From Candidatus Saganbacteria bacterium (GTDB taxonomy: Bacteria > Margulisbacteria > WOR-1 > O2-12-FULL-45-9 > XYB2-FULL-48-7): DNA of 64,000 nt. Positions within the stretch are counted from its first letter, which is position 1. The number at the start of each line of letters is the position of its first letter. The position numbers and the translations under genes are program-made. Shown piece after piece: positions 5,501 through 63,797 of the stretch. The DNA lies in the NCBI GenBank assembly GCA_016939335.1, contig JAFGHC010000030.1, positions 15,230 through 79,229 of the forward strand. Direction: 5' to 3'. The notes under the pieces are model-generated. The model searched no databases. It was not told the DNA's origin and saw only the letters and a list, made by a program, of their open reading frames with translations.

Positions 5501-7171
5501 TTAATGCCTAGCCGGATCATGTTCTAGTGTTGGCAATGGCGGCAAATTAAACGCTTCGATCTTTTCTTTCCAAAAGCCTGATGTTTTGTAAATATCATAA
5601 AATCTTTTCCTATATTCATGATATTTTTCAATTTTATTAAGTTTTTCACAGCATTTTGCCGCATAATAAAAAGCAAACGCATGATCATCCCTTACTTTTA
5701 TAGCATTTTCAAACCCGGATAAAGCCGTTGAATAATTGCCAAGCTGATAATCACTATTCAAAACATAATTAAGCTCGAGATTTAGAAAATATGTAATCTC
5801 TTTAATATAATCGGGCGTAAATTCCTCTGTTTCGATAATCGGCTTTTTAAAATCGCACTTTAAATAATCATCTTTTAGGTACCCTTTTTCTTCACATATT
5901 TCAAACATTCGACTCCCAACTAAGGGGGTGGCCGCACTGAATCTAAACCAATTTGGCCTGATTGTTTTAAAATATTTCCTGGCCTCCTCAATATCATTTT
6001 TTGTTTCGCCAGGCAATCCGATTAGAATCGCGACATCGGTCGCAATTCCCAATTCACGGCAAAGAGATATTACCTGATCGACAATTGAAGGCCTTAACGG
6101 TTTGTGCATAATTTCTTTCAGCACTCTTTCACTCCCGGACTCAACCGATAATGTAAGATGATCCATGCCAACGCTCTTTAAGGCCATGAGCATCTCCCTA
6201 TCAAGAGCGTATAAGGCCAATGAATTAGGGAAAGAAGGTTTTAGCCCCAACTCTCTTAAGATATTAAGTATTTCAAATACTCTTTTTTTGTTTGACATAA
6301 AATGATCATCCAATATTGTCAAGGAAGTGGCAGAATACTTCTCCTTAAGCGCCTTAAAATCTTCTTTTATCCGTTCAATGCTATAATATCTCATTTTTCT
6401 GCCATGAACAGTATGTGAGGCGCAGAAAGTGCAGTGATGAGGGCAGCCCCTTGACGTCATTGTCGAAAAATTACTATTTTTTGATGATAAATGGAATAAA
6501 GACAGGACTGAAGTCCCTGAATAATCGGATAAATCTAATAAATCATAATCCAACAACGGGATCTCATCAAGATCTTCAATAAAATCATATTCATATTTTT
6601 CAGATTTTGTTTTGTTTCTTGTTATCCACGAACTGCTTTTTTGCAAATATTCCTTTTTATTGTCGGATTGCAATAATTTTAATAGTGGCTTTTCTCCCTC
6701 GCCAAAGCAGATCGCATCAATGCTTTTATTGGTTTTAAATATTTCCTTATACATGTTTGCCGGTATGCCGCCACCACATATAATTAAGGACTTTTTATAT
6801 AATTTTCGTGCCTCATCCGCTATATCTAACGTACTATGAAATGATGAGGCAAAAAGAGTGGAAATCCCGATAATAGTTGGCTCATAATTAACCCAAACAT
6901 CATTAGAAAGAACTTCTTTAAACATTTGTTTAAATGATTTATAATCAAAGCTTTTTGTTTTACAAAGAATCACGTTAAAGTCAAGCAGTTTTACTTCTAC
7001 TTTAGTTTTATTTTTTATATAAGCGGAAAGGGATAACAATCCAATTGGCATATCCATAACAATACTGCCTAAAGACTTTGAGCCTTTCTTAACTATCCGT
7101 TCGTTAAATTCTGGATTAACTAAACTTTCGTATGTGATATATGGCGGGACTATAAAAAGAATTCTTTCCAT
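5501..7171 (-). CDS. B12-binding (class B) radical SAM enzyme, probable methyltransferase
   Basis: 556 aa; N-terminal cobalamin-binding-like Rossmann region (ILFIVPPY..MPIGLLSLSAY), radical SAM motif SRGCPHHCTFCAS; low GC (about 35%). Confidence 0.7.
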   Translation of the reverse strand: MERILFIVPPYITYESLVNPEFNERIVKKGSKSLGSIVMDMPIGLLSLSAYIKNKTKVEVKLLDFNVILCKTKSFDYKSFKQMFKEVLSNDVWVNYEPTIIGISTLFASSFHSTLDIADEARKLYKKSLIICGGGIPANMYKEIFKTNKSIDAICFGEGEKPLLKLLQSDNKKEYLQKSSSWITRNKTKSEKYEYDFIEDLDEIPLLDYDLLDLSDYSGTSVLSLFHLSSKNSNFSTMTSRGCPHHCTFCASHTVHGRKMRYYSIERIKEDFKALKEKYSATSLTILDDHFMSNKKRVFEILNILRELGLKPSFPNSLALYALDREMLMALKSVGMDHLTLSVESGSERVLKEIMHKPLRPSIVDQVISLCRELGIATDVAILIGLPGETKNDIEEARKYFKTIRPNWFRFSAATPLVGSRMFEICEEKGYLKDDYLKCDFKKPIIETEEFTPDYIKEITYFLNLELNYVLNSDYQLGNYSTALSGFENAIKVRDDHAFAFYYAAKCCEKLNKIEKYHEYRKRFYDIYKTSGFWKEKIEAFNLPPLPTLEHDPARH

Positions 7172-15251: not shown

Positions 15252-18023
15252 TCAAACCGCCCTTTGACAAAAACCCCTGATCTGGTCGAGCGCATAATCG
15301 ATCATCTCCCCGGTCAGGCCCGGATAGACACCGATCCAAAACGCCTGCTTCATGACCAGATCGGTATTCTTTAATTCCCCCGCGACCCTATACCCTTGCT
15401 CCTTGCCCCTCATCTCGTCAAAACACGGATGCTTGACCATATTGCCGGCAAAAAGCATCCGGGTCTGGATCCCTTTCGATTCAAGGGATCTAACTATTTC
15501 GTCCCGGGAAAAGCCGGCCCGCTCTTTTACGGTCAAAAGAAACCCGAACCAGCTCGGCTCGGAGTTTTCCGCCGCTTCCGGCAGGACAAAAACACTCTTC
15601 AGCTCGTCCAGGCCCCGGCGGAGTTTCTCCCAGTTCTTCCTCCTGGCGGCAATGAAATTTGGGAGCTTCTCGAGCTGGGCGCAGCCGATGGCCGCCTGCA
15701 GATCGGTGGCCTTCAGGTTATAACCGAAATGAGAATAAACATACTTATGGTCGTACCCGTACGGCAAGGCGCCGAACTGTTGGGTAAATCGTTTACCGCA
15801 AGTGTTGTCCTTACCCGAAGGACACGAGCAATCCCTCCCCCAATCCCTGAACGACTCGACATTTTTCTTGAGCTGCGGGTCGTTGGTGTAAACCGCCCCG
15901 CCCTCCCCCATGGTATTATGCAAAAACACTCCCAGGAAACCACCATAAAAGTTTTCTTTCCCAGGCACTGAAAAATCATAAACATATTCATTTTCCCCAT
16001 AATTGATTTCTTGTATGCTTCTGATCTTTAAAAAGCCGACCTCCCCTGCAACCACCTTCAGTAAATCACTATTTGAAACAATATATTTTGCTAGCCGCTT
16101 TCTGGAAATCGTCTTTTGCCCTTTGCCAATACTTATATAATTCCTAAAGACATCCAACAGCGGGGCTTGAAGGGCAACATTGTTCCGTTCCTTCTTGTTC
16201 TGCTTGACGATGGATTTCCCCCGGTAAATATAACCGCTAAAACTAAGCGTATAGTTGTCTTGCGAGGTTGTCCAATTATTCCCGATCTTCTTTTTTTTAC
16301 CGATATTTCTCCTATAAAAAGAAGCGCTTATCCCCACCCTGGACAACAAGTATTGAAAATCATTTAACAAATCCAGGGAAACGCTGGTGACATCGATATG
16401 ATTCGTATTGCCGGCCCTTTTTCTTTCCGAACCGTCTCCCTTTGTGTATCCATATATAAAAGCTTTAATGCATTTTTCATCGCCGTGATAAATAAACCAT
16501 GGTATGCGCTTGTTCTTTGCTCCTTTTTTAATCGCAAAAATCTCCGAAAAGACAATCTCAACATTTTTTGATTGGACTTCGATAACGGCTGAATTCCCCG
16601 CCTCTCTGACGGCGACTGATAAACCGAACAACGCTTTAATAAGACGTTTGACATCATTGATCAAATCGCGCTCTTTCTTGTGAAAAGAGAAAACTAAACC
16701 GTTTTGGTATGCTCCTTCAGCAATAAAATAACCGATCAGGCGGAACAGCTCTTCATTGACCGGCAGTCGAGCGGGGATCTTGCGTGATTGCGCGATCCCA
16801 ACCAGTAATTCTTCTTTTTTCAGATCATACATTTTCAAGTACTTGATCGGTAAAGTATTTCTGTCCTTGAATTGCCATCGCTGGTCGGCCTTCTTGACAT
16901 ATTTAAGATTAAAACGCGAGAAACCCGACACATAAGCATCCTTGCCAAAAAAAGGCTCGAGAATATTTATAGAATCGATTTTCCCCGGGCTGGGGATCTC
17001 ACTAGTAACAACAATATAATCATTTTTGCCTATCAACCCTGCCTGCTTCGGCACTATTTTCGCAGAATTTTTATCCAACACAAAGACACTATGATCTTCC
17101 GTAACTTCAACTCGTCTGCCATGTTGACAGACTATTTTCATCATTTTCTTTTGTCCTAACTTATGTCTCAAAATAGAAGCGGGAATTGTCCATCTAACCT
17201 TATTGTCTTTATCAAACGACAAAACCTGGATTTTTTCAGGCTGATCAACATAAAGCTCGAATATTCTATCAATCCTGTCAACTCGCCAGCTTCCCTTTTC
17301 ATCCAAGTATGGAATTGGAGTGTTTTTTGAGCAACTCATATGGTGCGGCGGATAAAAGCTGGAAGTGCCGAGATCGCCAAAAGTTCCCGTATAACCCCAT
17401 TGGCCGTTCAAATTGTATCTCGAGCCCAAAGAATCACAATTGTCCTCGATCAGCCAGAGCTCATGCTCCTCGCAGAATTTCTTGACCCGGCCGACGTCAA
17501 AGGGGTTCCCCAGCGTGTGCGCCAGCATGACCGCCTTTGTTTTTTCCGATAAAGCCTTTTTAAGCTGGCGGCAATCGATGTTATAGCCCGGCAGCGTGAT
17601 GTCGGCAAAGACCGGGACCGCCCCAAACTGGATGATCGGGGCAATGGTGGTGGGAAAGCCGGCCGCCACCGTGATGACCTCATCGCCGGGCTTGATCCGC
17701 CGCGCGCCGAGTTCCGGCACGGTCAGCGCCATAAACGCCAACAGGTTGGCCGAAGAGCCGGAATTCACCAGCGAGCAATATTTGACGCCCAGAAATCCGG
17801 CCAGGCCCTGCTCGAATTTCTCCGCGTACCTGCCCATGGTCAGCCAGAATTCGAGGGAAGAATCGACCAGGTTCCCGATCTCTTTTTCATCGAAGACCCG
17901 GCCGGCGTAGGGAATGCGCTCACCGGGCACCCATGGCCTTTTCTTGTGATTAACCCTGTAATATTCTAGTGCGGCCTTGACGGCCTTTGCTCTTAATTGA
18001 TCCTCGTTTCTTTCGCTACACAT
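15252..18023 (-). CDS. ddhC: CDP-4-keto-6-deoxy-D-glucose 3-dehydrase (E1; DdhC/RfbH, DegT aminotransferase fold) interrupted by a LAGLIDADG intein
   Basis: 923 aa, versus about 430 aa for typical RfbH. The N-extein ends GDLGTSSFYPPHHM(S) and the C-extein resumes TMGEGGAVYTNDPQLKKNVESFRDWGRDCSCPSGKDNTCGKRF, collinear with the Salmonella RfbH motif SFYPAHHITMGEGG..FRDWGRDCYC. Confidence 0.85.
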   Translation of the reverse strand: MCSERNEDQLRAKAVKAALEYYRVNHKKRPWVPGERIPYAGRVFDEKEIGNLVDSSLEFWLTMGRYAEKFEQGLAGFLGVKYCSLVNSGSSANLLAFMALTVPELGARRIKPGDEVITVAAGFPTTIAPIIQFGAVPVFADITLPGYNIDCRQLKKALSEKTKAVMLAHTLGNPFDVGRVKKFCEEHELWLIEDNCDSLGSRYNLNGQWGYTGTFGDLGTSSFYPPHHMSCSKNTPIPYLDEKGSWRVDRIDRIFELYVDQPEKIQVLSFDKDNKVRWTIPASILRHKLGQKKMMKIVCQHGRRVEVTEDHSVFVLDKNSAKIVPKQAGLIGKNDYIVVTSEIPSPGKIDSINILEPFFGKDAYVSGFSRFNLKYVKKADQRWQFKDRNTLPIKYLKMYDLKKEELLVGIAQSRKIPARLPVNEELFRLIGYFIAEGAYQNGLVFSFHKKERDLINDVKRLIKALFGLSVAVREAGNSAVIEVQSKNVEIVFSEIFAIKKGAKNKRIPWFIYHGDEKCIKAFIYGYTKGDGSERKRAGNTNHIDVTSVSLDLLNDFQYLLSRVGISASFYRRNIGKKKKIGNNWTTSQDNYTLSFSGYIYRGKSIVKQNKKERNNVALQAPLLDVFRNYISIGKGQKTISRKRLAKYIVSNSDLLKVVAGEVGFLKIRSIQEINYGENEYVYDFSVPGKENFYGGFLGVFLHNTMGEGGAVYTNDPQLKKNVESFRDWGRDCSCPSGKDNTCGKRFTQQFGALPYGYDHKYVYSHFGYNLKATDLQAAIGCAQLEKLPNFIAARRKNWEKLRRGLDELKSVFVLPEAAENSEPSWFGFLLTVKERAGFSRDEIVRSLESKGIQTRMLFAGNMVKHPCFDEMRGKEQGYRVAGELKNTDLVMKQAFWIGVYPGLTGEMIDYALDQIRGFCQRAV
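15915..17333 (-). other. Intein (473 aa) with LAGLIDADG homing-endonuclease domain inside ddhC
   Basis: It begins with Cys (CSKNTPIPYL) directly after HHMS. Block B is VEVTEDHSVFV (TxxH). The two LAGLIDADG motifs are LIGYFIAEGAY and FIYGYTKGDG. Blocks F/G are VYDFSVPGKENFYGGFLGVFLHN, followed by +1 Thr. The intein DNA is AT-richer than the exteins. The N boundary could shift one residue (Ser230). Confidence 0.85.
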
Positions 18024-19737
18024 TATTGTTCACCCGCCCCAAGCCAACCGCTCGCTTGAGCGAATTAAGCGCCTGATTAAATGCCCCGCGGATCAGATAT
18101 CTTCTTGGCCAGATTTGCTCATAAAATCTATACGAAAGCACTGGCATTAAAGTGTACACGGCCAGTAAAACATTGAGCGTGAACTTGAACAAGCTCGACG
18201 ATAAAAAGAAGCGGCGTGCGCAGGCGCGGCAATACATCATCGCGAAATAATAGTATTTTGATTTAAGCACATAATTCCCATAGTGGCTGACTGTTTTACA
18301 ATGAGGGCATTCGACCGAAAGCGAAAATGTCCCATCCTTCGCTTTCGCCGCCTTCCATTTTTTGGCATAGACACGGTCCTTAATAACCGCCTTGTTTATC
18401 TCATACCATAAACGCGCGAACGCCCGGTCCGTCAGGCTATCGCTCATGTTAAAAAGGCCGAAGATCCGGTTCTCGATGAAATCAATTTTATCTTTGATAA
18501 TCCCTTTTCCCAGGCATTTCTGATAAAGCGGGGTGCCCGGATAAGGGCTAATAAAGTTCAACATTATGCCCGCCTCCCGGTTCGCTTTCCAGTAGCTCAA
18601 AGTTTCTTTGATCGTTTGCCTGGTCTCGGCCGGATCGCCAAAAATAAAATTAGCCTGAAGGCTGATCTTATTCTTCAGGGTCAGCCTGACCGCCCGGTCA
18701 ATCTGTTCGGCGGTAATGCGCTTTTTCATGCTCTTGAGAACAGCCGGGCTATAACTTTCGAAACCATAACTTATTGAATAACAACCCGCTTCCTTCATGG
18801 CCTTCAACGTTGGCTCATCTAATTTATCAACCCGCATCTGACAACCCCATTTACATGGCCAGCTGATTTCTTTTAGCAGGATTTTGATCTGCCGGCAGAA
18901 TTCAGCCAGCCATTCCCGATCGTCGGAGAACAACTCGTCATAAATCCAGATCAGGTTAATGCGGTAGCGTTTTACCATGGCTGATAATTCTTCCATTATC
19001 GATTTAATAGATCGCTGCCGGTACTTTTGGCCGATCGGATGGTAGCAAAAAGTGCACGAATAGGGGCAAGAGCGGCTGCAGATGATGGGATAAACTCTCG
19101 GCTGATCAAATAATTCCATCCCGAAGTAGTCGGAGGGGCGCATTTTCTCCAGATACTTATCATATTCAAATGATTCGAAATCCGGCCAGGGGAGTGAATC
19201 AATGTCCGCTATCGGCGCACGAGCCTTCGTCAGAATGATCTGACCGGCTTGATCACGATAACCGATGCCCGCGACCCTGCCAATCTCCCCCTGCTTCTCA
19301 AGGTATGAGATAAGCTCACAGATCGTTTCTTCTCCTTCGCCCAGAACGATAAAGTCCGGGCTTAAAACAGAAAACATCAATTCCGGCTCACTGGAGATCA
19401 AGCCGCCCCCCAAAATCAATTTGATCTCCGGCTGACCGGCATGGAAAGCTTCGACCACCGCTTTGATCTGACGGTAGCTGGTCGAGATCCCCCCCGTGCA
19501 GGCAACCTCGAAGGGCCCGTGCTTCTTAATATAATTATTGAGCAGTTCCGGAATGGCCCCGTAATAATGGTTAAGGTTAAAACAGGCCACCTGATGCCCG
19601 GCTTGTTTCAAGACGGAAGAAAGATACGCCAGCCCCAGCGGGAACATATAATTATAGTTCTCCGCTTCTTCCAGCCGCATACGCGGGACAACGATCAATA
19701 TCCTCATTTCATATATTCCTCGATCTGCTGCCAGCAT
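18016..19737 (-). CDS. B12-binding (class B) radical SAM enzyme
   Basis: 573 aa; N-terminal B12-binding-like domain (RILIVVPRMRLEE..MFPLGLAYLSSVL), radical SAM motif CSRSCPYSCTFCYHP. Confidence 0.7.
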   Translation of the reverse strand: MLAADRGIYEMRILIVVPRMRLEEAENYNYMFPLGLAYLSSVLKQAGHQVACFNLNHYYGAIPELLNNYIKKHGPFEVACTGGISTSYRQIKAVVEAFHAGQPEIKLILGGGLISSEPELMFSVLSPDFIVLGEGEETICELISYLEKQGEIGRVAGIGYRDQAGQIILTKARAPIADIDSLPWPDFESFEYDKYLEKMRPSDYFGMELFDQPRVYPIICSRSCPYSCTFCYHPIGQKYRQRSIKSIMEELSAMVKRYRINLIWIYDELFSDDREWLAEFCRQIKILLKEISWPCKWGCQMRVDKLDEPTLKAMKEAGCYSISYGFESYSPAVLKSMKKRITAEQIDRAVRLTLKNKISLQANFIFGDPAETRQTIKETLSYWKANREAGIMLNFISPYPGTPLYQKCLGKGIIKDKIDFIENRIFGLFNMSDSLTDRAFARLWYEINKAVIKDRVYAKKWKAAKAKDGTFSLSVECPHCKTVSHYGNYVLKSKYYYFAMMYCRACARRFFLSSSLFKFTLNVLLAVYTLMPVLSYRFYEQIWPRRYLIRGAFNQALNSLKRAVGLGRVNNNV

Positions 19738-20750
19738 TTTTTTCTAACGTCTTCGCCGCGCTGATAGGGTCTGGTCCATTCAATCACTTTAGCCAGCGCT
19801 TCTCCGAGGCGGTATTTCGGCCGCCATTTTAATTGCTTTTTTGCCTTGGAATTATCTAATCTCAAACAAGCCGTTTCATGAGGCTGCTGGCCGCACTCAA
19901 TTATATAAGCGGCTTCTCCGCCCCAGACCCGGCATAACTCTTTGACAAGCCATTCGACCGATCTAGCGTCACTGTCGTCCGGCCCGAAATTCCAGGCCCC
20001 GGCATATTTATCGCCGCTCCGGTACAACTTCTCGGCTAAAATCAGATAGCCCATTAACGGCTCCAAAACATACTGCCAGGGACGCGTGGCTTTGGGGTTC
20101 CTGATTTTAATTCTTTCGCCTTTTAAAACCGCCCGGACAAAATCCGGAACCAATCTGTCAACCGCCCAGTCCCCTCCCCCGATCACATTCCCGGCCCGGG
20201 CGGTCGCGACGTTCATCCCGTATGACCGCCGGTAAGCCTGGGCGACAAGTTCCGAGCACGCTTTGCTGCTCGAGTAAGGATCATGCCCTCCTAATGCGTC
20301 AGTTTCTTTAAAACCCGCGTCCCTCATCCCCCGTACCCCAGACCTGATCTCGTACACCTTATCCGTCGTCACATTGACGACCGCCCGGACGCTTTTACCG
20401 GCCCTGGCCGCCTCAAGCACGTTGACCGTCCCCATCACATTGACTGCGAAGGTCTCGCTCGGTACCTTATATGATTCTCTCACGATCGGCTGGGCCGCCA
20501 TGTGGATCACGATCTCCGGCTTGGCAGCTGACATGGCCTTTTTCAGCGACTTGGAATCCCTTACGTCAGCAATCACCGAACTGACCAATTCATCAACCTT
20601 ACATAAATTAAATAGGCTCGGGTTGGTCGGCGGACGCAGGGCATAGCCGGTCACTTTCGCCCCGAGCAGGCTTAGCCAGAGGCAAAGCCAGGAGCCCTTA
20701 AAGCCGGTGTGGCCGGTAATAAACACCCTTTTCTTGCGCCAGAATTCCAC
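19704..20750 (-). CDS. rfbG: CDP-glucose 4,6-dehydratase
   Basis: 348 aa; GTG start with AAGGGGG Shine-Dalgarno; RVFITGHTGFKGSWLCLWL..HMAAQPIVRESY..NVMGTVNVLEA collinear with Salmonella/Yersinia RfbG/DdhB. Confidence 0.85.
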   Translation of the reverse strand: MEFWRKKRVFITGHTGFKGSWLCLWLSLLGAKVTGYALRPPTNPSLFNLCKVDELVSSVIADVRDSKSLKKAMSAAKPEIVIHMAAQPIVRESYKVPSETFAVNVMGTVNVLEAARAGKSVRAVVNVTTDKVYEIRSGVRGMRDAGFKETDALGGHDPYSSSKACSELVAQAYRRSYGMNVATARAGNVIGGGDWAVDRLVPDFVRAVLKGERIKIRNPKATRPWQYVLEPLMGYLILAEKLYRSGDKYAGAWNFGPDDSDARSVEWLVKELCRVWGGEAAYIIECGQQPHETACLRLDNSKAKKQLKWRPKYRLGEALAKVIEWTRPYQRGEDVRKKCWQQIEEYMK

Positions 20751-20762
20751 TCTAACCCCCTT

Positions 20763-20846
20763 AATTAAACAATGTCACAATTAAACAACTCACAGCCAAA
20801 ATTAAACAATTCTCAACTAAAATTAAACAATGACACAATTAAACAA
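20763..20846. repeat. Array of 5 AATTAAACAA units (left arm of inverted repeat arrays flanking the 4-helix-bundle gene)
   Basis: AATTAAACAA at 20763, 20779, 20800, 20821 and 20837 with 5-12 nt spacers; reverse complement of the TTGTTTAATT units at 21251-21338. Confidence 0.8.
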
Positions 20847-20860
20847 TTCACAAATATTAG

Positions 20861-21250
20861 TTAATTGTCTAATTGCGCCGAAGCCTTGGTCAGTATACTG
20901 CTCAAGATATTCCTTAATTCAAGGCTTTCCCGCAATAAGTCGTCAATTTCTTTCTTGTTCACTTCATTTTCCAATAATCCGACCTCTTTCACTATTCTAA
21001 GCCAATAAGTGGTTTCCCTCGCTTCTCTTCGGGCAATTCCCATTTTATAAATAAAATCCTTTTTGGAATGAGCGTCGTCCGCTTCTTCCACGTTCGCGCC
21101 AATCGACGTCCCCGCCGCCATTAATTGTTCCCCCAGCTTAAAGCCCGCCGTGCTCTTAGGGAAGGCCATCACGAGCTTTATGATCCTCAAGCTAAAATCA
21201 AAAGTCCTGTCTTTTATATCAAACTTTTTTCGCTCTATTTTATTTCCCAT
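20861..21250 (-). CDS. Four-helix-bundle protein (23S rRNA intervening-sequence protein family)
   Basis: 129 aa; all-helical, K/E-rich, central GTSIGANVEEAD..ARRE motif typical of the S23-IVS/four-helix-bundle family; AT-rich relative to flanks; bracketed by inverted repeat arrays. Confidence 0.6.
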   Translation of the reverse strand: MGNKIERKKFDIKDRTFDFSLRIIKLVMAFPKSTAGFKLGEQLMAAGTSIGANVEEADDAHSKKDFIYKMGIARREARETTYWLRIVKEVGLLENEVNKKEIDDLLRESLELRNILSSILTKASAQLDN

Positions 21251-21338
21251 TTGTTTAATTGTTTAATTGTGATTTGTTTAATTGTTTAATTGTGATTTGT
21301 TTAATTGTTTAATTGGGTTTTGTTTAATTGTTTAATTT
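21251..21338. repeat. Array of about 8 TTGTTTAATT units (24-nt super-unit TTGTTTAATTGTTTAATTGTGATT twice, plus variants)
   Basis: Direct tandem repeats read from sequence; inverted relative to the 20763-20846 array; overlaps the 3' end of rfbF. Confidence 0.8.
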
Positions 21339-22113
21339 ATCCCCAAACCTTCCAGGCCGCCTGGCCCGACCGCCAGAGCTCTTCAAGCATATTTTTCTCC
21401 CTCAAAGTATCCATCGGCTGCCAGAAACCGTTATGTTTATAGGCCATCAATTGGCCTTCCTTGGCCAGCCTTTTTACCGGCATGTTCTCAAAGGCCATCT
21501 GATCCCCCTCGATATAATCGATGACTTTCGGATCCAGGACAAAAAAGCCGCCGTTGATCCAGGTATAGTTCCCCTCGGTCTTCTCCAGGAATCTCTCCAC
21601 GGTATTTTCTTTGCTGATCCGCAAGGCGCCGAACCGTCCGAGCGGCCTGACGGCGGTCACGGTCGCCAGCTTGCCGTGGGCGCGATGAAAGTCCAGTAAT
21701 TCCTTAAGGTTAATATCGGCAACGCCATCGCCATACGTGAACATAAAAGGTTCGTTACCAAGGTACTCCTTCACCCTTTTCAGCCGGCCGCCGGTCTGGG
21801 TCTCCAGCCCCGTATCGACCAGGGTCACCTCCCAGGGCTCGGCCGTATGGCTATGAATAACTTTCTTTTCGCCTTTATTGAAATTAAAAGTGACATCAGA
21901 TTCATGCAAAAAATAATTCCTGAAATACTCTTTAATCAGGTACCCTTTATAGCCGACGCAAATGACAAACTCATTAAAGCCGTAATGAGAATATCCCTTC
22001 ATGATATGCCAGAGGATCGGTTTTTCACCGATATCAAGCATCGGCTTTGGCTTGAGATAAGATTCCTCGCCGATCCTTGTCCCCTGCCCGCCCGCCAAGA
22101 TAACGACTTTCAT
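21337..22113 (-). CDS. rfbF: Glucose-1-phosphate cytidylyltransferase
   Basis: 258 aa; [76 protein letters not shown] nearly collinear with Salmonella RfbF ([39 protein letters not shown]..). Confidence 0.9.
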   Translation of the reverse strand: [258 protein letters not shown]

Positions 22114-32910: not shown

Positions 32911-33624
32911 TCACCGGTTCTCGGCAAGGTACTCCTTTACGGCTTTTAAGCTCGTTTCCCTAAGCCTTAATTTCGGCCTAACAAAGCGCGGCGACCAGGC
33001 GCTCAACCCGAGCAGATCGTAGGTCACCAAAACCTGACCGTCGCAAGCCGGTCCCGAACCGATCCCGATCGTCGGGATTTCTAGCGCGTTCGTGATCTTT
33101 TCCGCCAGCCGCGGCTCGACCATTTCCAGCACGATCGCAAATACGCCGGCCCGCTCCAGCGCCCTGGCCTCTTCGATCAGCGCTTCAGACTTCACGACGG
33201 ACGGCTTGACGCTGGTTTGCGGCAAATAGCCAAGGTGACCCATGACAGGTATCCCCGCGGCAATTATCTTCTTGATCTGCCCAAGCTCCTTTGTCCCCTC
33301 CACTTTCACGGCCTCCGCGCCGGCCCGGACCAGCTTGCGGGCATTGGCAGCGGAAAGCGAGCGGAACGGCATATCGGCCGCCAGCAGCGCCCGCTTCACT
33401 CCCTGGCCCGCGGCTTTTGTGTGATGCAGCATATCCGCCATCGTCACGCCGCGAGTGTCCGGCAAGCCCAGAATGACATTGCCCAGCGAGTCGCCGACCA
33501 GCACGATATCGACCCCCGCCTCATCCAGGATCTGCGCGATAGGATGATCGTAAGCCGTCAGCATTACGACCTTTCGATTTTCTGATTTCGAATTTCGTAT
33601 TTTCTGTGCTGTTATTTTTTCCAT
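32911..33624 (-). CDS. panB: 3-methyl-2-oxobutanoate hydroxymethyltransferase
   Basis: 237 aa; VMLTAYD..VLVGDSLGNVILG motifs, collinear with E. coli PanB. Confidence 0.85.
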   Translation of the reverse strand: MEKITAQKIRNSKSENRKVVMLTAYDHPIAQILDEAGVDIVLVGDSLGNVILGLPDTRGVTMADMLHHTKAAGQGVKRALLAADMPFRSLSAANARKLVRAGAEAVKVEGTKELGQIKKIIAAGIPVMGHLGYLPQTSVKPSVVKSEALIEEARALERAGVFAIVLEMVEPRLAEKITNALEIPTIGIGSGPACDGQVLVTYDLLGLSAWSPRFVRPKLRLRETSLKAVKEYLAENR

Positions 33625-39940: not shown

Positions 39941-39998
39941 GAAATTCGAAATACGAATAACGAAATACGAAGGAATATCGAAATTCGAATTTCTGATT
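39941..39998. repeat. Copy of GAAATTCGAAATACGAA-based dispersed repeat (half-element; ends in 14-bp palindrome GAAATTCGAATTTC)
   Basis: About 85% identical over about 50 nt to the left half of the element at 45023-45188. Confidence 0.6.
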
Positions 39999-45022: not shown

Positions 45023-45188
45023 GAAATTCGAAATACGAATCTCGAAATACGAAATAATATCGAAATTCGAAGTGTTTCCCGTTTCTAATTTGCTTTCTTT
45101 CGCATTTCCTTCGAATTTCGGAATTCGAGTTTCGTATTTTGTCTTATTCGTATTTCCTTCGAACTTCGAAATTAGTATTTCGTATTTT
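45023..45188. repeat. MITE-like imperfect palindromic element built from TTCGAAATACGAA / TTCGTATTTCGAA units
   Basis: The left half (GAAATTCGAAATACGAATCTCGAAATACGAAATAATATCGAAATTCGAAG) and the right half are inverted copies of each other; the left half is about 85% identical to 39941-39998. Confidence 0.6.
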
Positions 45189-45293
45189 AAGGGGGCATCT
45201 CCCTTTAGCTTGACGCAAACCTGACAAATGGCCGTGTTGCCGAACGGGCCCGGCATTGTATTTTAGGCCTTTTACTGCTAAAATCCGTCTATA

Positions 45294-54028: not shown

Positions 54029-54209
54029 GTTAATTTTACCATAACCGGGAGGATATCAGGTTATCAGAGAATCAGGGCGCAGATGATCAGTAAATCAGAA
54101 GATCAGGAAGAATAACTGATAACCTGGTATTCTGATCTCCCACCCTCTGATATCCTGATATTCTGATATCCACATTTGCGCACCTGTCGTCAATAATTAA
54201 AACGCGGAT

Positions 54210-58912: not shown

Positions 58913-59006
58913 TTATCGTCCTTTCTATGTCAATGAGAATAAGGCAACTTTTTAACTCTTTTTATTTTTAATTTTTTATTCTTAATTTTTTATTTTTGAT
59001 TTTATT

Positions 59007-59402
59007 TTAGACCTGCATCTGGGTTATTTCTTTTATCGTCGAGACCGTCGTATTGACGGTCGTGACCGCCAGGGTCTCCAGCACGCTCAATTTCGACTGG
59101 GCGATCATCACGTCGGCCAGTTCCGCCTGACCATGGGCATATTTATCGATCAACTGATTGGTGTAAACCTCGGCGCGGCTGACGCCGTTGAGCTTATCGA
59201 TCGCCTGGCCCAGCAGGTCATCAAAGGGGTTGCCGGAAAAAGCGGTCCGGGCCGCCGGCGCGGAGGCCGCCGTCGCCGACGGGAAAACCGGCGCCTGGGC
59301 CACCACGGGCGCCTGATCCAGAAAATTATTACCATTATTGCTGTCGCCGATCAGCTGGGCCAGTCTTTCTTCCGCGCTGAGCGGTCCGATCGCCTCGATC
59401 AT
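59007..59402 (-). CDS. fliE: Flagellar hook-basal body complex protein FliE
   Basis: 131 aa; C-terminal ..ELADVMIAQSKLSVLETLAVTTVNTTVSTIKEITQMQV typical of FliE. Confidence 0.75.
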   Translation of the reverse strand: MIEAIGPLSAEERLAQLIGDSNNGNNFLDQAPVVAQAPVFPSATAASAPAARTAFSGNPFDDLLGQAIDKLNGVSRAEVYTNQLIDKYAHGQAELADVMIAQSKLSVLETLAVTTVNTTVSTIKEITQMQV

Positions 59403-61204: not shown

Positions 61205-62365
61205 TTAGATGACCTCCAGCGGCGCCTTGAGCGCGCCGCTCTTCTTCATCGCCTGCAGGATCGAGATCAGGTCCTTGGGCGAGGCGCCGATCGTGTTGAG
61301 CGCCCGCACCAGCACCGCCAGGCTGGGCGCGGCCGGCACCAGCGTCAGCTGCGCCGACGAACGCTTGAGGCGCGCCTTGGTCGACGACTGGTAACGCTGC
61401 TGGCCGCCGGCCGTGTAATCGGCCGTGTCGGTCGTATCGCCGACCGAATAGATCGAAACGTCGCCGATGGCGACATCGATGCCGCTGTAAGAGACGGCCA
61501 CCGGGGCGATCACCACGTTCTCGCCGATCACCACGGTGCCGGTCCGTTCATTGATCACGATCTTGGCCACGGTGTCGGGTGAGACGGCCAGGTTCTCGAT
61601 CCGCGCGATCATGGGGACCAGTTCGCCCTCGATCGCCACGGTCACGGTGGCCGCGTCCTGGGGAGTAGCGGAAAAACCGGCATTGCTGATGGCGGCCGCC
61701 ACCCGGCTGGCGGTGGTAAAGTCCGGTTCGTTCAAAACGATAGTGATCCCGCCTTTCCCTTCAAGCGTCACCGGCACTTCTTTTTCGACCAGCGCCCCTT
61801 CCGGTATCCGGCCGACGGTCACCTGGCGCGGCCGGACGTAGGGAACGCTGGGATACGAGGCATCGGCACCGACCACCAGGTTCCCCTGCGCCACGGCGTA
61901 AACCTGGTCATCAACCCCCTGGAGCGGCGTGATGAGGAGCGTCCCGCCCTGCAGCGAGGTGGCGTCGCCGAGCGACGAAACGGTCACGTCAAGTTTCTGG
62001 CCGGAGCTGACAAAGGGCGGCAGCACCGCCGTGACCATGACCGCCGCCACGTTGCGCGACCTGAAATCGACCGACGGCGGCACGACCCCCATGCGCGACA
62101 TCAGGTTGGTGACCGCCTGCTGGGTAAAGCTCGACTGGTTGCGGTCGCCGGTATTGTTCAGGCCGACCACCAGGCCAAAGCCCATCAACTGGTTCTCGCG
62201 CGCCCCCAGGATGTGGGCAATGTCTTTAAGACGGACCGCCGGAGAAGCGCCATAAGCGACAGCGACAAATGACAAATTACAAACAACAAACAATATCAAA
62301 ATAATAAATATTTTAAAATTTAAAACTTGGAAATTGTTTGTCATTTGATGCTTGTTATTTGTCAT
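61205..62365 (-). CDS. flgI: Flagellar P-ring protein FlgI
   Basis: 386 aa; signal peptide, RLKDIAHILGARENQLMGFGLVVGLNNTGD signature. N-terminus has the MTNN..MTNN direct repeat; start may be the second Met (62344). Confidence 0.85.
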   Translation of the reverse strand: MTNNKHQMTNNFQVLNFKIFIILILFVVCNLSFVAVAYGASPAVRLKDIAHILGARENQLMGFGLVVGLNNTGDRNQSSFTQQAVTNLMSRMGVVPPSVDFRSRNVAAVMVTAVLPPFVSSGQKLDVTVSSLGDATSLQGGTLLITPLQGVDDQVYAVAQGNLVVGADASYPSVPYVRPRQVTVGRIPEGALVEKEVPVTLEGKGGITIVLNEPDFTTASRVAAAISNAGFSATPQDAATVTVAIEGELVPMIARIENLAVSPDTVAKIVINERTGTVVIGENVVIAPVAVSYSGIDVAIGDVSIYSVGDTTDTADYTAGGQQRYQSSTKARLKRSSAQLTLVPAAPSLAVLVRALNTIGASPKDLISILQAMKKSGALKAPLEVI

Positions 62366-62379
62366 TTGTGTGTGCGCTC

Positions 62380-63003
62380 CTAAAAAATCCAGTTAAAGAG
62401 CCTCGTCAGCCAGCCGGGCTGGGCGGTATCGGAAACGGCGCCGCTCCCGCTCACGGTCAGCTCGGCGTTGGCCACCTGATAGGAATAGACGGTATTGGAC
62501 CCGGCTATGTCCTTGGGCCGGACGGTGCCGGTCAGCGTGATCTCCTGCATCTCATCGTTGACGTTGACCTTGTGGCGCCCCTTGATCAGCAGGTTGCCGT
62601 TGGGCAGGACCTCGATCACCCAGGCGGCGATCCGCGCCTGAACGTTGTTCCCCCGCACCGTCGAGCCGTCGCCGGTGTAAAGATTCTGCAGCTGGCCGTT
62701 CGCCTGGGTGTTCAAGCCGATGACCGGCGCCAGCCGCTGCATCGTGTGGGTGAACTTGGCGCTCAAATTGTCGGTCACGTTGGCCTTGGTCGTCGCCTGG
62801 TTCTTGGCCGAAGTGTTCTCCAGGATCACGACGTTAATGATGTCGCCGACCTTGTAAGCTTTGGCGGGGGAATAGGGCGAAGCGCTGTCCTCGTTCCAGA
62901 GCGAATTGGCACCCGCCGCTCCGGCCAGGGCCAGCCAGCAAACGCCAAGCATTAAAAAATACTTTTGACTTTTGACTTTTGACTTTTGACTTATTGTTCT
63001 CAC
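62380..63003 (-). CDS. flgH: Flagellar L-ring protein FlgH
   Basis: 207 aa; GTG start overlapping the flgA stop (alternative ATG at 62952); YKVGDIINVVILENTSA..LTVSGSG motifs of FlgH. Confidence 0.8.
   Translation of the reverse strand: MRTISQKSKVKSQKYFLMLGVCWLALAGAAGANSLWNEDSASPYSPAKAYKVGDIINVVILENTSAKNQATTKANVTDNLSAKFTHTMQRLAPVIGLNTQANGQLQNLYTGDGSTVRGNNVQARIAAWVIEVLPNGNLLIKGRHKVNVNDEMQEITLTGTVRPKDIAGSNTVYSYQVANAELTVSGSGAVSDTAQPGWLTRLFNWIF
62962..62989. repeat. Heptanucleotide tandem repeat (CTTTTGA)x4 at the 5' end of flgH
   Basis: ACTTTTGACTTTTGACTTTTGACTTTTGACTT read from sequence. On the minus strand it encodes QKSKVKSQK if the GTG start is used. The 7-nt unit is not a multiple of 3. 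Confidence 0.85.
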
Positions 63004-63797
63004 TGGACCTTGACCTCGACTTCCCCGGCGGCGACAACTCTGGCCGGCAAAATTTTATTGGAATCCTTGCGCTTGACCTTGATCTCCGCGCCGAGCACCC
63101 CGTCCTCCTCCGCCCGGGCCTTGACCTTGACCGTCAGGCCCGGCGCCGCCACTGTCAGCGTCACTTCGTCGCCGCGGTGCACCAGCGGCACCGCGCCGAT
63201 CATCCATTCAAAGACCGTACTGTTGTCGGGGACCGAGATCTTGGCCTCCTGGCTGATCAGGCGGTCAAAAGCCGTGAAATATTTCGGCGGCAAGAGCGCC
63301 ACGTCGCGCTCGTCAAGCTTGAGGTCATCCGGCCCGATCAGCGTCCCTTTCTTGATCAGCCGGGCCGCCGCCACGACGTTCTTGAACACCTCGACCTTGG
63401 CCCGCACCAGGTATTTACGGCCGCCGCTTTCGCAGGAAGCCACGAGCGGGAAGACCACGCTGCCGACCGGACGAAAATCGGGGTAGACCTCGAGCACCTC
63501 CAAGCTGACCGTTTCGGGCAGTTCCTTCATCTCGGCAAAAATACCCTCCGCCTGCCTGAAGGTCAGGTCAATCCGGTCGTTGGCCCAGTCGGGATACCTG
63601 CCCACGACGTAGTTCCTGATCGTCTCGCTGACCCGCTGCTCCGGGTCGTCGAGCGCGCGACAAAACGACAAATGGCCAAGGACCAATGACCAATTAACGA
63701 TTATTGCCAGCAGCAGCAACGCCCTGCCGACCGGACAAAACCGCAGAATTAATTCTGCGGTTTTTGTTCTTGCTTTAAATTCAATCGTGCCCTTCAT
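63000..63797 (-). CDS. flgA: Flagellar basal-body P-ring formation protein FlgA (SAF domain)
   Basis: 265 aa; signal peptide, C-terminal SAF-like ..GDEVTLTVAAPGLTVKVKARAEEDGVLGAEIKVK.. Confidence 0.65.
   Translation of the reverse strand: MKGTIEFKARTKTAELILRFCPVGRALLLLAIIVNWSLVLGHLSFCRALDDPEQRVSETIRNYVVGRYPDWANDRIDLTFRQAEGIFAEMKELPETVSLEVLEVYPDFRPVGSVVFPLVASCESGGRKYLVRAKVEVFKNVVAAARLIKKGTLIGPDDLKLDERDVALLPPKYFTAFDRLISQEAKISVPDNSTVFEWMIGAVPLVHRGDEVTLTVAAPGLTVKVKARAEEDGVLGAEIKVKRKDSNKILPARVVAAGEVEVKVQ

Follow-up and report, generated by a model that had tools for sequence, protein, structure and literature searches.

Organization of the rfbF-rfbG locus

The window analyzed here is a stretch of 64,000 nucleotides of contig JAFGHC010000030.1 from a metagenome-assembled genome (MAG) of Candidatus Saganbacteria, and it contains an O-antigen operon in which the cistrons rfbF and rfbG are separated by an AT-rich segment of 586 nt. 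Within this segment lies a gene for a small four-helix-bundle protein of the S23p family (also known as 23S rRNA intervening sequence (IVS) or Avd-like proteins), bracketed by inverted arrays of a short repeat unit. In the following, the gene and its two arms are referred to as the cassette. Measured against the empty site of relatives, the whole insert spans 20751-21342 on the minus strand (592 nt) and has a GC content of 0.356 versus 0.541 for the window, which bears out the AT-rich spacer of the preliminary description. Comparison of the junctions with those of two relatives (L206 and L208) makes it highly probable that these positions represent an inserted gene-plus-arms element, and the aligned sequences place its insertion point exactly at the rfbF/rfbG cistron junction.

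The upstream host gene rfbF (21337-22113; glucose-1-phosphate cytidylyltransferase; TIGR02623, 418 bits) and the downstream host gene rfbG (19704-20750; CDP-glucose 4,6-dehydratase; TIGR02622, 468 bits) are both encoded on the minus strand, as are all elements of the cassette. Read along the gene strand, the rfbF stop codon is followed by four AATTAAACAATTAAACAA doublets (period 23), which lead directly into the ATG of the open reading frame (ORF); after the ORF come five TTGTTTAATT units and then AAGGGGGTTAGA, next to the GTG at which rfbG starts. The 5′ arm (21251-21337) comprises eight AATTAAACAA units in four doublets with ATCAC/AACCC spacers and a period of 23. On the plus strand, the corresponding exact TTGTTTAATT matches start at 21251, 21259, 21274, 21282, 21297, 21305, 21320 and 21328 (n = 8), with a 2-nt overlap within each doublet, and Tandem Repeats Finder assigned this array a period of 23, 3.9 copies and 96% matches. 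Hence, the period found in the window arms is 8 nt within doublets and 23 nt overall, and not a tandem period of 7 nt. The 3′ arm (20763-20846) comprises five TTGTTTAATT units separated by spacers of 6, 11, 11 and 6 nt (exact plus-strand AATTAAACAA starts at 20763, 20779, 20800, 20821 and 20837; n = 5, spacing 16/21/21/16) and ends 12 nt ahead of the rfbG start. The five copies at these positions had been counted correctly before; of the approximately eight reverse-complement copies previously placed at 21251-21338, all eight are exact, but the array ends at 21337, and it is by this one base that it overlaps the rfbF stop, as had been proposed.

At its upstream edge, the insert supplies GGA TAA (21337-21342), i.e. 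an added Gly codon and a new rfbF stop, the TAA of which continues into the first repeat unit; the C-terminus of RfbF reads ...KVWG before the stop in the window versus ...KVW in the closest relative (L206). At the downstream edge, AAGGGGGTTAGA (20751-20762) corresponds, according to the junction alignment, to a Shine-Dalgarno sequence and spacer before the rfbG GTG start. The 5′ arm runs up to the ATG of the four-helix-bundle gene (20861-21250) without an intervening Shine-Dalgarno sequence. Across the stop codon of this gene, a local hairpin formed by an inverted pair is predicted (20818-20890, minus strand; -22.9 kcal/mol, z -4.9), in which the first T-rich unit of the 3′ arm is the partner of a degenerate A-rich unit located in the last codons (TTGTCTAATT, 20865-20874). 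The hairpin is followed by a U-rich stretch and may act as a terminator or 3′-end stabiliser.

Exact AATTAAACAA or TTGTTTAATT units were not found anywhere in the 64-kb window outside the two arms. When up to one mismatch was allowed, 23 matches were counted in the window, whereas 100 shuffles averaged 4.07 and never exceeded 9. The window contains only this one four-helix-bundle gene. Rfam gave no match at the locus, its sole match in the window being one tRNA, and no rRNA.

The encoded protein (129 aa, pI 8.8) is a member of the S23-IVS family, as first described from its sequence: it matches PF05635 ('23S rRNA-intervening sequence protein') with 77.2 bits (cut-off 33.8) and TIGR02436 ('four helix bundle protein') with 95.7 bits (cut-off 24), and phmmer retrieved the structure 2RLD (BT_0352) with E = 1e-18. 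The AlphaFold2 monomer model contains four helices at a predicted local distance difference test (pLDDT) score of 92.3. Foldseek aligned it to 2RLD with a target-normalized TM-score (TMt) of 0.90 and to 2GSC (Xcc0516) with up to 0.85, and weakly to the Avd structures 4DWL/8UB7 (TM 0.66-0.78; TMt 0.76-0.78 for 4DWL and 8UB7_E at 12-13% identity, E = 0.1-0.6). The 2RLD structure has five chains, and Xcc0516 has been described as a pentamer (PMC4990558). The family as a whole is basic, with a median pI of 9.55. Searches against PADLOC and PHROGs gave no match for the protein, and no member of the RVT family was found in the genes of a second assembly of the locus (L001, 10 kb downstream), in the ORFs scanned or among the neighbours in relatives, the rest of the window not being scanned.

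Evidence for the insertion comes from the closest syntenic relatives of rfbF, which share the order glycosyltransferase, rfbF, rfbG and DegT aminotransferase (L206-L210), with a B12-radical-SAM gene between rfbG and DegT in the window, L206 and L208, which is not found in L209/L210. In L206 and L207 (rfbF 88% identical) the two cistrons overlap as TAATG, the empty junction of L206 reading rfbF ...tggaaggtttggTAATGacg... rfbG; in L208 (83% identical) they are 31 nt apart; and in L209 and L210 (81% identical) they overlap again. Neither the four-helix-bundle gene nor the arrays are present at the rfbF/rfbG junction in any of these five loci. The empty-site alleles anticipated by the preliminary description thus exist, and the presence of the cassette is sporadic. 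Since rfbF and rfbG abut in the syntenic relatives without gene or repeats, the segment is best explained as an insertion, which by the same alignment would have replaced the TAATG translational coupling with a Shine-Dalgarno sequence for rfbG. The 31-nt spacer at the empty junction of L208 (3682-3712) itself holds a small heptamer-like repeat with a palindrome (GATCCGAAGTCGGAAATCCGAA).

Two further observations concern the same operon and its assembly. The DegT/DnrJ/EryC1 (rfbH-like) aminotransferase (15252-18023, minus strand) is 923 aa long and contains an intein with a LAGLIDADG_3 endonuclease domain, while its orthologues in L206, L208 and L209 have about 450 aa and lack the intein domain; therefore, the operon appears to bear a second, independent insertion beside the cassette. 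In an independent Logan assembly of the same sample (SRR13394437), contig L001 begins 28 nt before the ATG of the four-helix-bundle gene, within the 5′ arm. Such arrays thus cause breaks when short reads are assembled, and metagenomes may yield too low a count of cassettes.

Inverted repeat arms across the S23p family

Homologues with 71-80% identity to the window protein were identified in other metagenomes (L002, L003, L004/L005, L211 and L212), and they carry the same repeat unit. AATTAAACAA units are located upstream of the gene in L002, L004/L005, L211 and L212, and TTGTTTAATT units downstream in all of them including L003, the contig of which begins 18 nt before the start codon, leaving the upstream flank mostly off the contig. 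Even the spacers are conserved among these cassettes, reading ATCCC within the 5′ block and GTGAAA within the 3′ one, and the array copy number varies. The host contexts differ: the L004/L005 cassette adjoins pilM/N, and those of L002, L211 and L212 are located on the 3′ side of genes for surface proteins whose C-terminal domain is of the FlgD-Ig / Por_Secre_tail type (Pfam matches in L211 and L212), a context that is suggested for L003 as well by a downstream copy of the same surface-protein C-terminal codons. Together with the rfb operon, the window's repeat unit is accordingly seen in at least three independent gene contexts, as judged from the flanking genes.

Synonymous sites are saturated among these homologues (pS 0.68-0.89), whereas the nonsynonymous divergence is low (pN 0.10-0.20), and dN/dS is 0.08 in the sole computable pair, which indicates strong purifying selection on the four-helix-bundle protein. 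The 10-mer is identical across all of these homologues despite the saturated pS, a degree of conservation that, by this comparison, lies far beyond the neutral expectation for non-coding DNA. From their recurrence, the arms are taken to belong to the four-helix-bundle gene and not to the host locus. The further array copies for which the preliminary description proposed a search are present in these loci, tied to homologous four-helix-bundle genes, and the arms, which travel with the cassette, are not promoter UP-elements of the rfb genes.

Several features were observed beside these homologous cassettes. L002 has an additional gene-less hairpin of the window's unit. In L211 (577-661 and 1191-1275), L212 (953-1041 and 1506-1594) and L003 (~425-510), the last ~24 codons of the surface-protein gene (...PFEVVARSGDKxVSGRGKIAVLK and stop) recur behind the cassette. 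This second copy is 69-71% identical at the DNA level, nearly identical as protein and in frame through the 3′ arm. In L211 and L212, this amounts to a stretch of ~85-89 nt on both sides of the cassette with 29-31% nucleotide differences. The duplication suggests integration at, or recombination through, the conserved end of the surface-protein gene. Cassettes also cluster in L003 and L211. In L003, a gene-less hairpin of another unit (ACAAGGC / GCCTTGT; 470-700) comes after the cassette and surrounds a doubtful 49-aa ORF; in L211, an ORF (1285-1439) directly after the first cassette is preceded by a different, G-rich repeat, and its N-terminus (MEEKKRITSFRDLEVYRN...) resembles the four-helix-bundle family by eye, making it a candidate only.

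The survey was extended to 80 diverse loci from metagenomes, encoding relatives with 41-60% identity. For 76 four-helix-bundle genes and, as controls, 312 other ORFs of these loci, the 7-mers shared between the 150 nt upstream and the reverse complement of the 150 nt downstream were counted. The median number of shared inverted 7-mers was 12 for four-helix-bundle genes versus 2 for controls (Mann-Whitney p = 5e-27). At least five were shared by 79% of the four-helix-bundle genes versus 12% of the controls, and at least ten by 62% versus 2%. Tandem repetition within each flank was enriched too (p = 1e-14 and 2e-20), whereas direct sharing between flanks was barely enriched (p = 0.05). Gene-plus-inverted-arms is thus a family-wide architecture of PF05635, which is itself very widespread. 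The energies of flank duplexes calculated with RNAduplex did not discriminate the family from controls, GC-rich control flanks being equally low.

The arms follow a simple rule. A 7-nt period was measured for 36 of 43 5′ arms and for 50 of 54 3′ arms, and the window represents a rarer 8-nt variant of this heptamer rule. Median arm lengths are 34 and 36 nt, corresponding to about five units, and the lengths of the two arms are correlated (rho 0.49). The unit itself is clade-specific (GAATTAA, GAATTAC, AAAATGC, AATTGAG, AAATCCC, CAAAAGT, GAGTGAA and others), with the reverse complement on the opposite side each time. The fraction of pairs with a common unit 7-mer falls with protein identity, from 3/3 at ≥85% and 6/9 at 70-85% to 33% at 60-70%, 12% at 50-60% and 2-5% below 50%, and in this comparison the repeat unit diverges together with the protein. 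In addition, the palindrome has a polarity, the 5′ arm being A-rich in 43 loci and T-rich in 3, equally on both strands. A bias of gene orientation was rejected as the source of the 43:3 ratio, which stems from the polar palindrome. A likeness to telomeres, in the sense of T-rich strands pointing 3′-outward on both strands, was considered and dropped, since the 3′ arms are rich in pyrimidines and not in G.

The pattern is also present in all six plasmid loci of cultured organisms (five cyanobacterial and one Bacteroidota), with 13-29 shared inverted 7-mers. Plasmid loci of Nostoc punctiforme PCC 73102 have arms of GTCGGAG x4 (NPUN_RS34315) and CAATTCG x4 (NPUN_RS35560), and that of Nostoc flagelliforme has an AATTCAA x4 arm; inverted arms are likewise present in the plasmid locus of Bernardetia sp. 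The cassette of Planktothrix agardhii (L217, 1483-1842) is flanked by drmD of DISARM and pglX of BREX, and that of Anabaena cylindrica PCC 7122 plasmid pANACY.01 (L215, 1492-1839; ANACY_RS28330) lies between cas2 and cas1. In the latter, the T-rich arm comes first, a reversal of the usual polarity, and another A-rich array is located upstream. A scan of viral contigs gave a single relative, which shows the inverted-arm pattern; in the collection scanned, the four-helix-bundle family is not mainly viral. In general, cassette neighbours are partners of housekeeping operons, such as E1/E2 of 2-oxoacid dehydrogenase, thiolase/acyl-CoA dehydrogenase, LemA/M48 peptidase, CarB and ArgB, and 42 of 58 cassettes are co-oriented with both neighbours.

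A contig scan for three TTAAACAA units gave, among the matches listed, mostly chance occurrences in AT-rich genomes, with no Saganbacteria among them. By accident, it also yielded two four-helix-bundle loci, L031 and L125. The former (5960-6427, a Saprospiraceae MAG) encodes a distant family member with (GATTAAAC / AATTAAACA)n arrays on both sides, the unit of which almost equals that of the window. Its gene lies directly upstream of an ORF with an N-terminus that resembles an NAD-dependent epimerase by eye, again as a candidate only.

Besides the cassettes, gene-less hairpins and one-sided arrays of similar units occur. Gene-less hairpins of a cassette's own unit were found near cassettes in L002, L184, L190, L202 and L165, and own-unit clusters numbered 21, whereas exchanging the units among loci gave 6 on average. 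The window contains three gene-less hairpins, at 45023-45190 (unit GAAATACGAAAT), 54050-54171 (GATCAG / CTGATATC) and 62264-62369 (GACAAAT), each with an RNA fold z of about -5.2 and with the A-rich-then-T-rich polarity of cassette arms. One-sided short-unit arrays are located at 33572-33602, 39941-39995, 58949-59008, 62961-62992 and 63667-63694, and a GAAAT(A/T)CGAAAT family is common to three places in the window. Several units of these gene-less arrays equal cassette arm units in other organisms: GACAAAT is the arm unit of four-helix-bundle cassettes in L156 and L165, the array ACTTTTG x4.6 corresponds to the arm unit of L147, and GACCAAT matches the arms of L141. GACCAAT is also a rotation of the reverse complement of TTGGTCA, a unit of the cyanobacterial short tandemly repeated repetitive (STRR) sequences.

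A probable intervening element within an operon and competing explanations

The known elements closest to this arrangement are the IVSs of 23S rRNA, S23p-bearing examples of which occur in Leptospira, Coxiella burnetii, Brucella and Haemophilus; the Coxiella IVS is a 428-nt element with the S23p ORF within a 28-bp terminal-repeat stem that is cleaved by RNase III (PMC4990558). The likeness extends to the protein family in the loop, to the size (428-759 nt there, 592 nt here), to terminal inverted repeats forming a stem around the S23p ORF (a predicted fold in our case), and to a sporadic distribution with empty sites in relatives and a GC content below that of the host. The family-wide median arm lengths of 34 and 36 nt also come near the stem length of 28 bp in the Coxiella IVS. 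However, the rRNA elements reside in helix 25 or 45 of 23S rRNA, whereas the window cassette lies between protein-coding cistrons; its arms are tandem arrays of short units, whereas the published description of the Coxiella IVS is of a unique 28-bp inverted repeat; and excision by RNase III has been shown for the rRNA elements, whereas it is inferred for the cassette. By this analogy, we read the locus as an operon-borne form, with tandem-unit arms, of the S23p-bearing IVS.

RNA folding is in line with such a structure. When each arm is folded alone, the 5′ arm is predicted to be unstructured (-4.4 kcal/mol, z -1.25) and the 3′ arm to lack significant structure (z -0.85). Folding of the entire cassette pairs the two arms with one another and leaves the ORF as the loop (z -4.72; minimum free energy and centroid structures). 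According to the mechanism proposed as the most likely one, the cassette would be co-transcribed with the rfb operon, and the A-rich 5′ arm and U-rich 3′ arm would pair, with interruptions, into an extended AU-rich duplex that encloses the ORF in its loop. RNase III would cleave this duplex as it does the stems of rRNA IVSs, thereby removing the cassette RNA and leaving rfbF and rfbG as separate translatable messages, with rfbG taking its own Shine-Dalgarno sequence from the cassette edge. Processing and the new Shine-Dalgarno sequence together would render an insertion within the operon tolerable or even harmless. The repeated units would probably double as multi-site binding sites for the protein, the solved relatives of which are pentameric. 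As a composite, an IVS-type intervening cassette consisting of a gene with inverted tandem-repeat arms and subject to RNA processing is the explanation we consider, on balance, probable. Among its parts, an RNA stem with RNase III-type processing is plausible by analogy while falling somewhat short of probable, and binding of the four-helix-bundle protein to its own repeat unit is proposed more tentatively still.

Several observations weigh against this explanation. About a fifth of the family members have no clear inverted arms, and the arrays of L031 are direct instead of inverted. At the rfbF/rfbG junction, the alignment revealed no clear target-site duplication, and no mobility enzyme (transposase, recombinase or reverse transcriptase) was present among the neighbours examined. 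Of the 'small selfish intervening element' initially suggested, the intervening nature is thus upheld by the comparative evidence, but the selfish nature is not, no mobility mechanism having been found. The strong local hairpin at the end of the gene would draw the first 3′-arm unit away from arm-arm pairing. In strand-specific comparisons aimed at RNA-level selection, changes compatible with G:U pairing in the sense RNA numbered 81 versus 60 antisense-compatible ones (p = 0.09), and a sense-versus-antisense duplex bias occurs in control genes too. Since no Shine-Dalgarno sequence separates the 5′ arm from the ATG, unlike in the homologues, the window gene may also be poorly expressed. A unit that is identical across saturated divergence argues for sequence-specific recognition and not for just any stem, and a protein-binding or DNA-level role would fit this identity at least as well. 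Co-transcription, stem formation and cleavage are all three inferred.

In one competing explanation, the arms would serve as binding arrays that the protein encoded by the cassette recognises, through its clade-specific 7-8-nt unit, in RNA or single-stranded DNA, with no need for RNase III; the protein would then autoregulate the cassette or act on other arrays of the same unit in the genome. This explanation would account for the identity of the unit among homologues with saturated synonymous sites, for the way in which unit sharing follows protein identity, and for arms of about five units in a family whose solved relatives are pentamers (2RLD; Xcc0516, PMC4990558). The basic character of the family, the RNA stem-loop binding of Avd and the excess of gene-less same-unit hairpins near cassettes (21 clusters versus a control mean of 6) point the same way. 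However, simple operators require neither inverted symmetry nor correlated arm lengths, and Avd is said to bind nucleic acid without sequence specificity. As a sufficient explanation we regard binding arrays as rather unlikely, but they are compatible with the intervening-cassette explanation and not exclusive of it. The conservation and co-divergence of the unit point most simply, in addition to RNA processing or instead of it, to recognition by the cassette's basic, pentamer-family protein.

In the literature, S23p proteins are described as IVS-encoded or Avd-like, and tandem heptamer repeats have been reported separately. The latter are known as stand-alone arrays from cyanobacteria (STRR; TTTTGAA/TTCAAAA in Nostoc 7120), Beggiatoaceae (TAACTGA), Geobacter and Xanthomonas; they are intergenic, their function is given as unknown, and a binding partner has been postulated. 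Like the window's 5′ arm, which ends at the ATG, such intergenic tandem units frequently extend up to a start codon or its immediate vicinity, and the arms of the Nostoc plasmid cassettes (AATTCAA x4, GTCGGAG x4, CAATTCG x4) are arrays of this type. Unlike the cassette arms, they were published as stand-alone and mostly direct arrays, and the window unit differs by its 8-nt period (10-mers overlapping by 2). Our literature search, which did not extend to most subscription journals, retrieved no text linking the four-helix-bundle family to heptamer arrays or inverted pairing. As for Avd of the diversity-generating retroelements (DGRs), it binds RNA stem-loops, and the DGR RNA has complementary segments up- and downstream of the template (bioRxiv 10.1101/2023.10.23.563531). 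Avd shares the fold and the basic character of the window protein, is pentameric like the solved relatives 2RLD and 2GSC, and acts on an RNA with pairing flanks and Avd-bound stem-loops. However, it is only 12% identical, and no reverse transcriptase, template or variable repeat was found near the window gene or the neighbours examined.

Another explanation, which we rate as just as unlikely as the binding arrays, is that the arms act at the DNA level, as terminal inverted repeats or as a hairpin/cruciform for a mobility or recombination machinery that is host-encoded or acts in trans. In this case, the four-helix-bundle protein could be an accessory factor, as Avd is to the reverse transcriptase, and the gene-less hairpins could be derivatives resembling miniature inverted-repeat transposable elements (MITEs). 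Empty sites and several insertion contexts are consistent with this possibility, as are the gene-less same-unit hairpins near cassettes, the match of gene-less hairpins in the window to cassette arms elsewhere, the relationship of the family to a reverse-transcriptase cofactor, and the duplicated ~24-codon surface-protein end in L211, L212 and L003, which would be consistent with site-specific or homology-driven integration. The missing target-site duplication and the lack of transposase, recombinase or reverse transcriptase genes mentioned above speak against it; moreover, the sites bound by transposases are usually longer than 7-8 nt, and the unit is confined to one cassette within the 64 kb. 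Similarly, repetitive extragenic palindromes (REPs), their paired form (REPINs) and MITE hairpins are short intergenic inverted repeats in many copies, with gene-less beside gene-carrying forms, but the cassette has no RAYT or adjacent transposase, its arms consist of tandem short units, and its cargo is a four-helix-bundle protein without known catalytic activity. Iterons, to which the arrays had been compared at first, are direct sites of ~17-22 bp at a replication origin that are bound by Rep, whereas the window units measure 10 nt and are inverted around a gene in a chromosomal operon with no Rep gene present.

Two further explanations fare considerably worse. Ordinary regulatory or contingency sequence of the rfb genes (an AT-rich promoter, UP elements or phase-variable slippage repeats), with the gene being incidental, would suit tandem, AT-rich arrays directly upstream of rfbG, the weak sigma-70-like matches that overlap them and a copy number that differs among homologous cassettes. 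However, a promoter and terminator scan yielded no convincing signal, with 7 promoter-like matches versus 3.7 expected and none of them strong; the arrays are absent at the same junction in relatives and recur with the gene at unrelated loci, and the inverted pairing around the gene is family-wide. From these comparisons, this explanation appears largely refuted and very improbable. Chance low-complexity sequence or an assembly artefact, suggested by the break of the L001 assembly within a 5′ arm that is hard to assemble, is a negligible possibility given 13 exact 10-mers versus none elsewhere, a count reached by 0/100 shuffles, and the recurrence of the architecture in independent assemblies and finished genomes of cultured cyanobacteria.

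Implications for S23p proteins and tandem heptamer repeats

The O-antigen operon of this MAG carries what appear to be two independent insertions, the cassette and the intein of the aminotransferase, but the main value of the locus lies in the general rule that it exposed: the four-helix-bundle gene is normally bracketed by inverted, clade-specific arrays, and gene and arms together behave as an element inserted between the genes of operons. In a wider sense, S23p/Avd-like proteins might be the sequence-specific partners of bacterial tandem heptamers, together forming an autonomous class of hairpin elements that is also the source of gene-less hairpins. We consider this generalization unlikely to hold in full, but its consequences would be far-reaching. 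If true, each protein clade would recognise its own unit, and the elements would insert between cistrons or into rRNA loops, where they were first seen as IVSs. They would furthermore spawn gene-less heptamer hairpins in Cyanobacteria, Margulisbacteria/Saganbacteria, Bacteroidota and others. Even without this generalization, the observed package joins two puzzles of about thirty years' standing, the role of S23p in 23S rRNA IVSs and the purpose of tandem heptamer repeats, and makes both accessible to direct experiments in cultured Nostoc or Anabaena. Genome annotators, in turn, gain a simple signature for a common, so far unannotated class of intervening elements.

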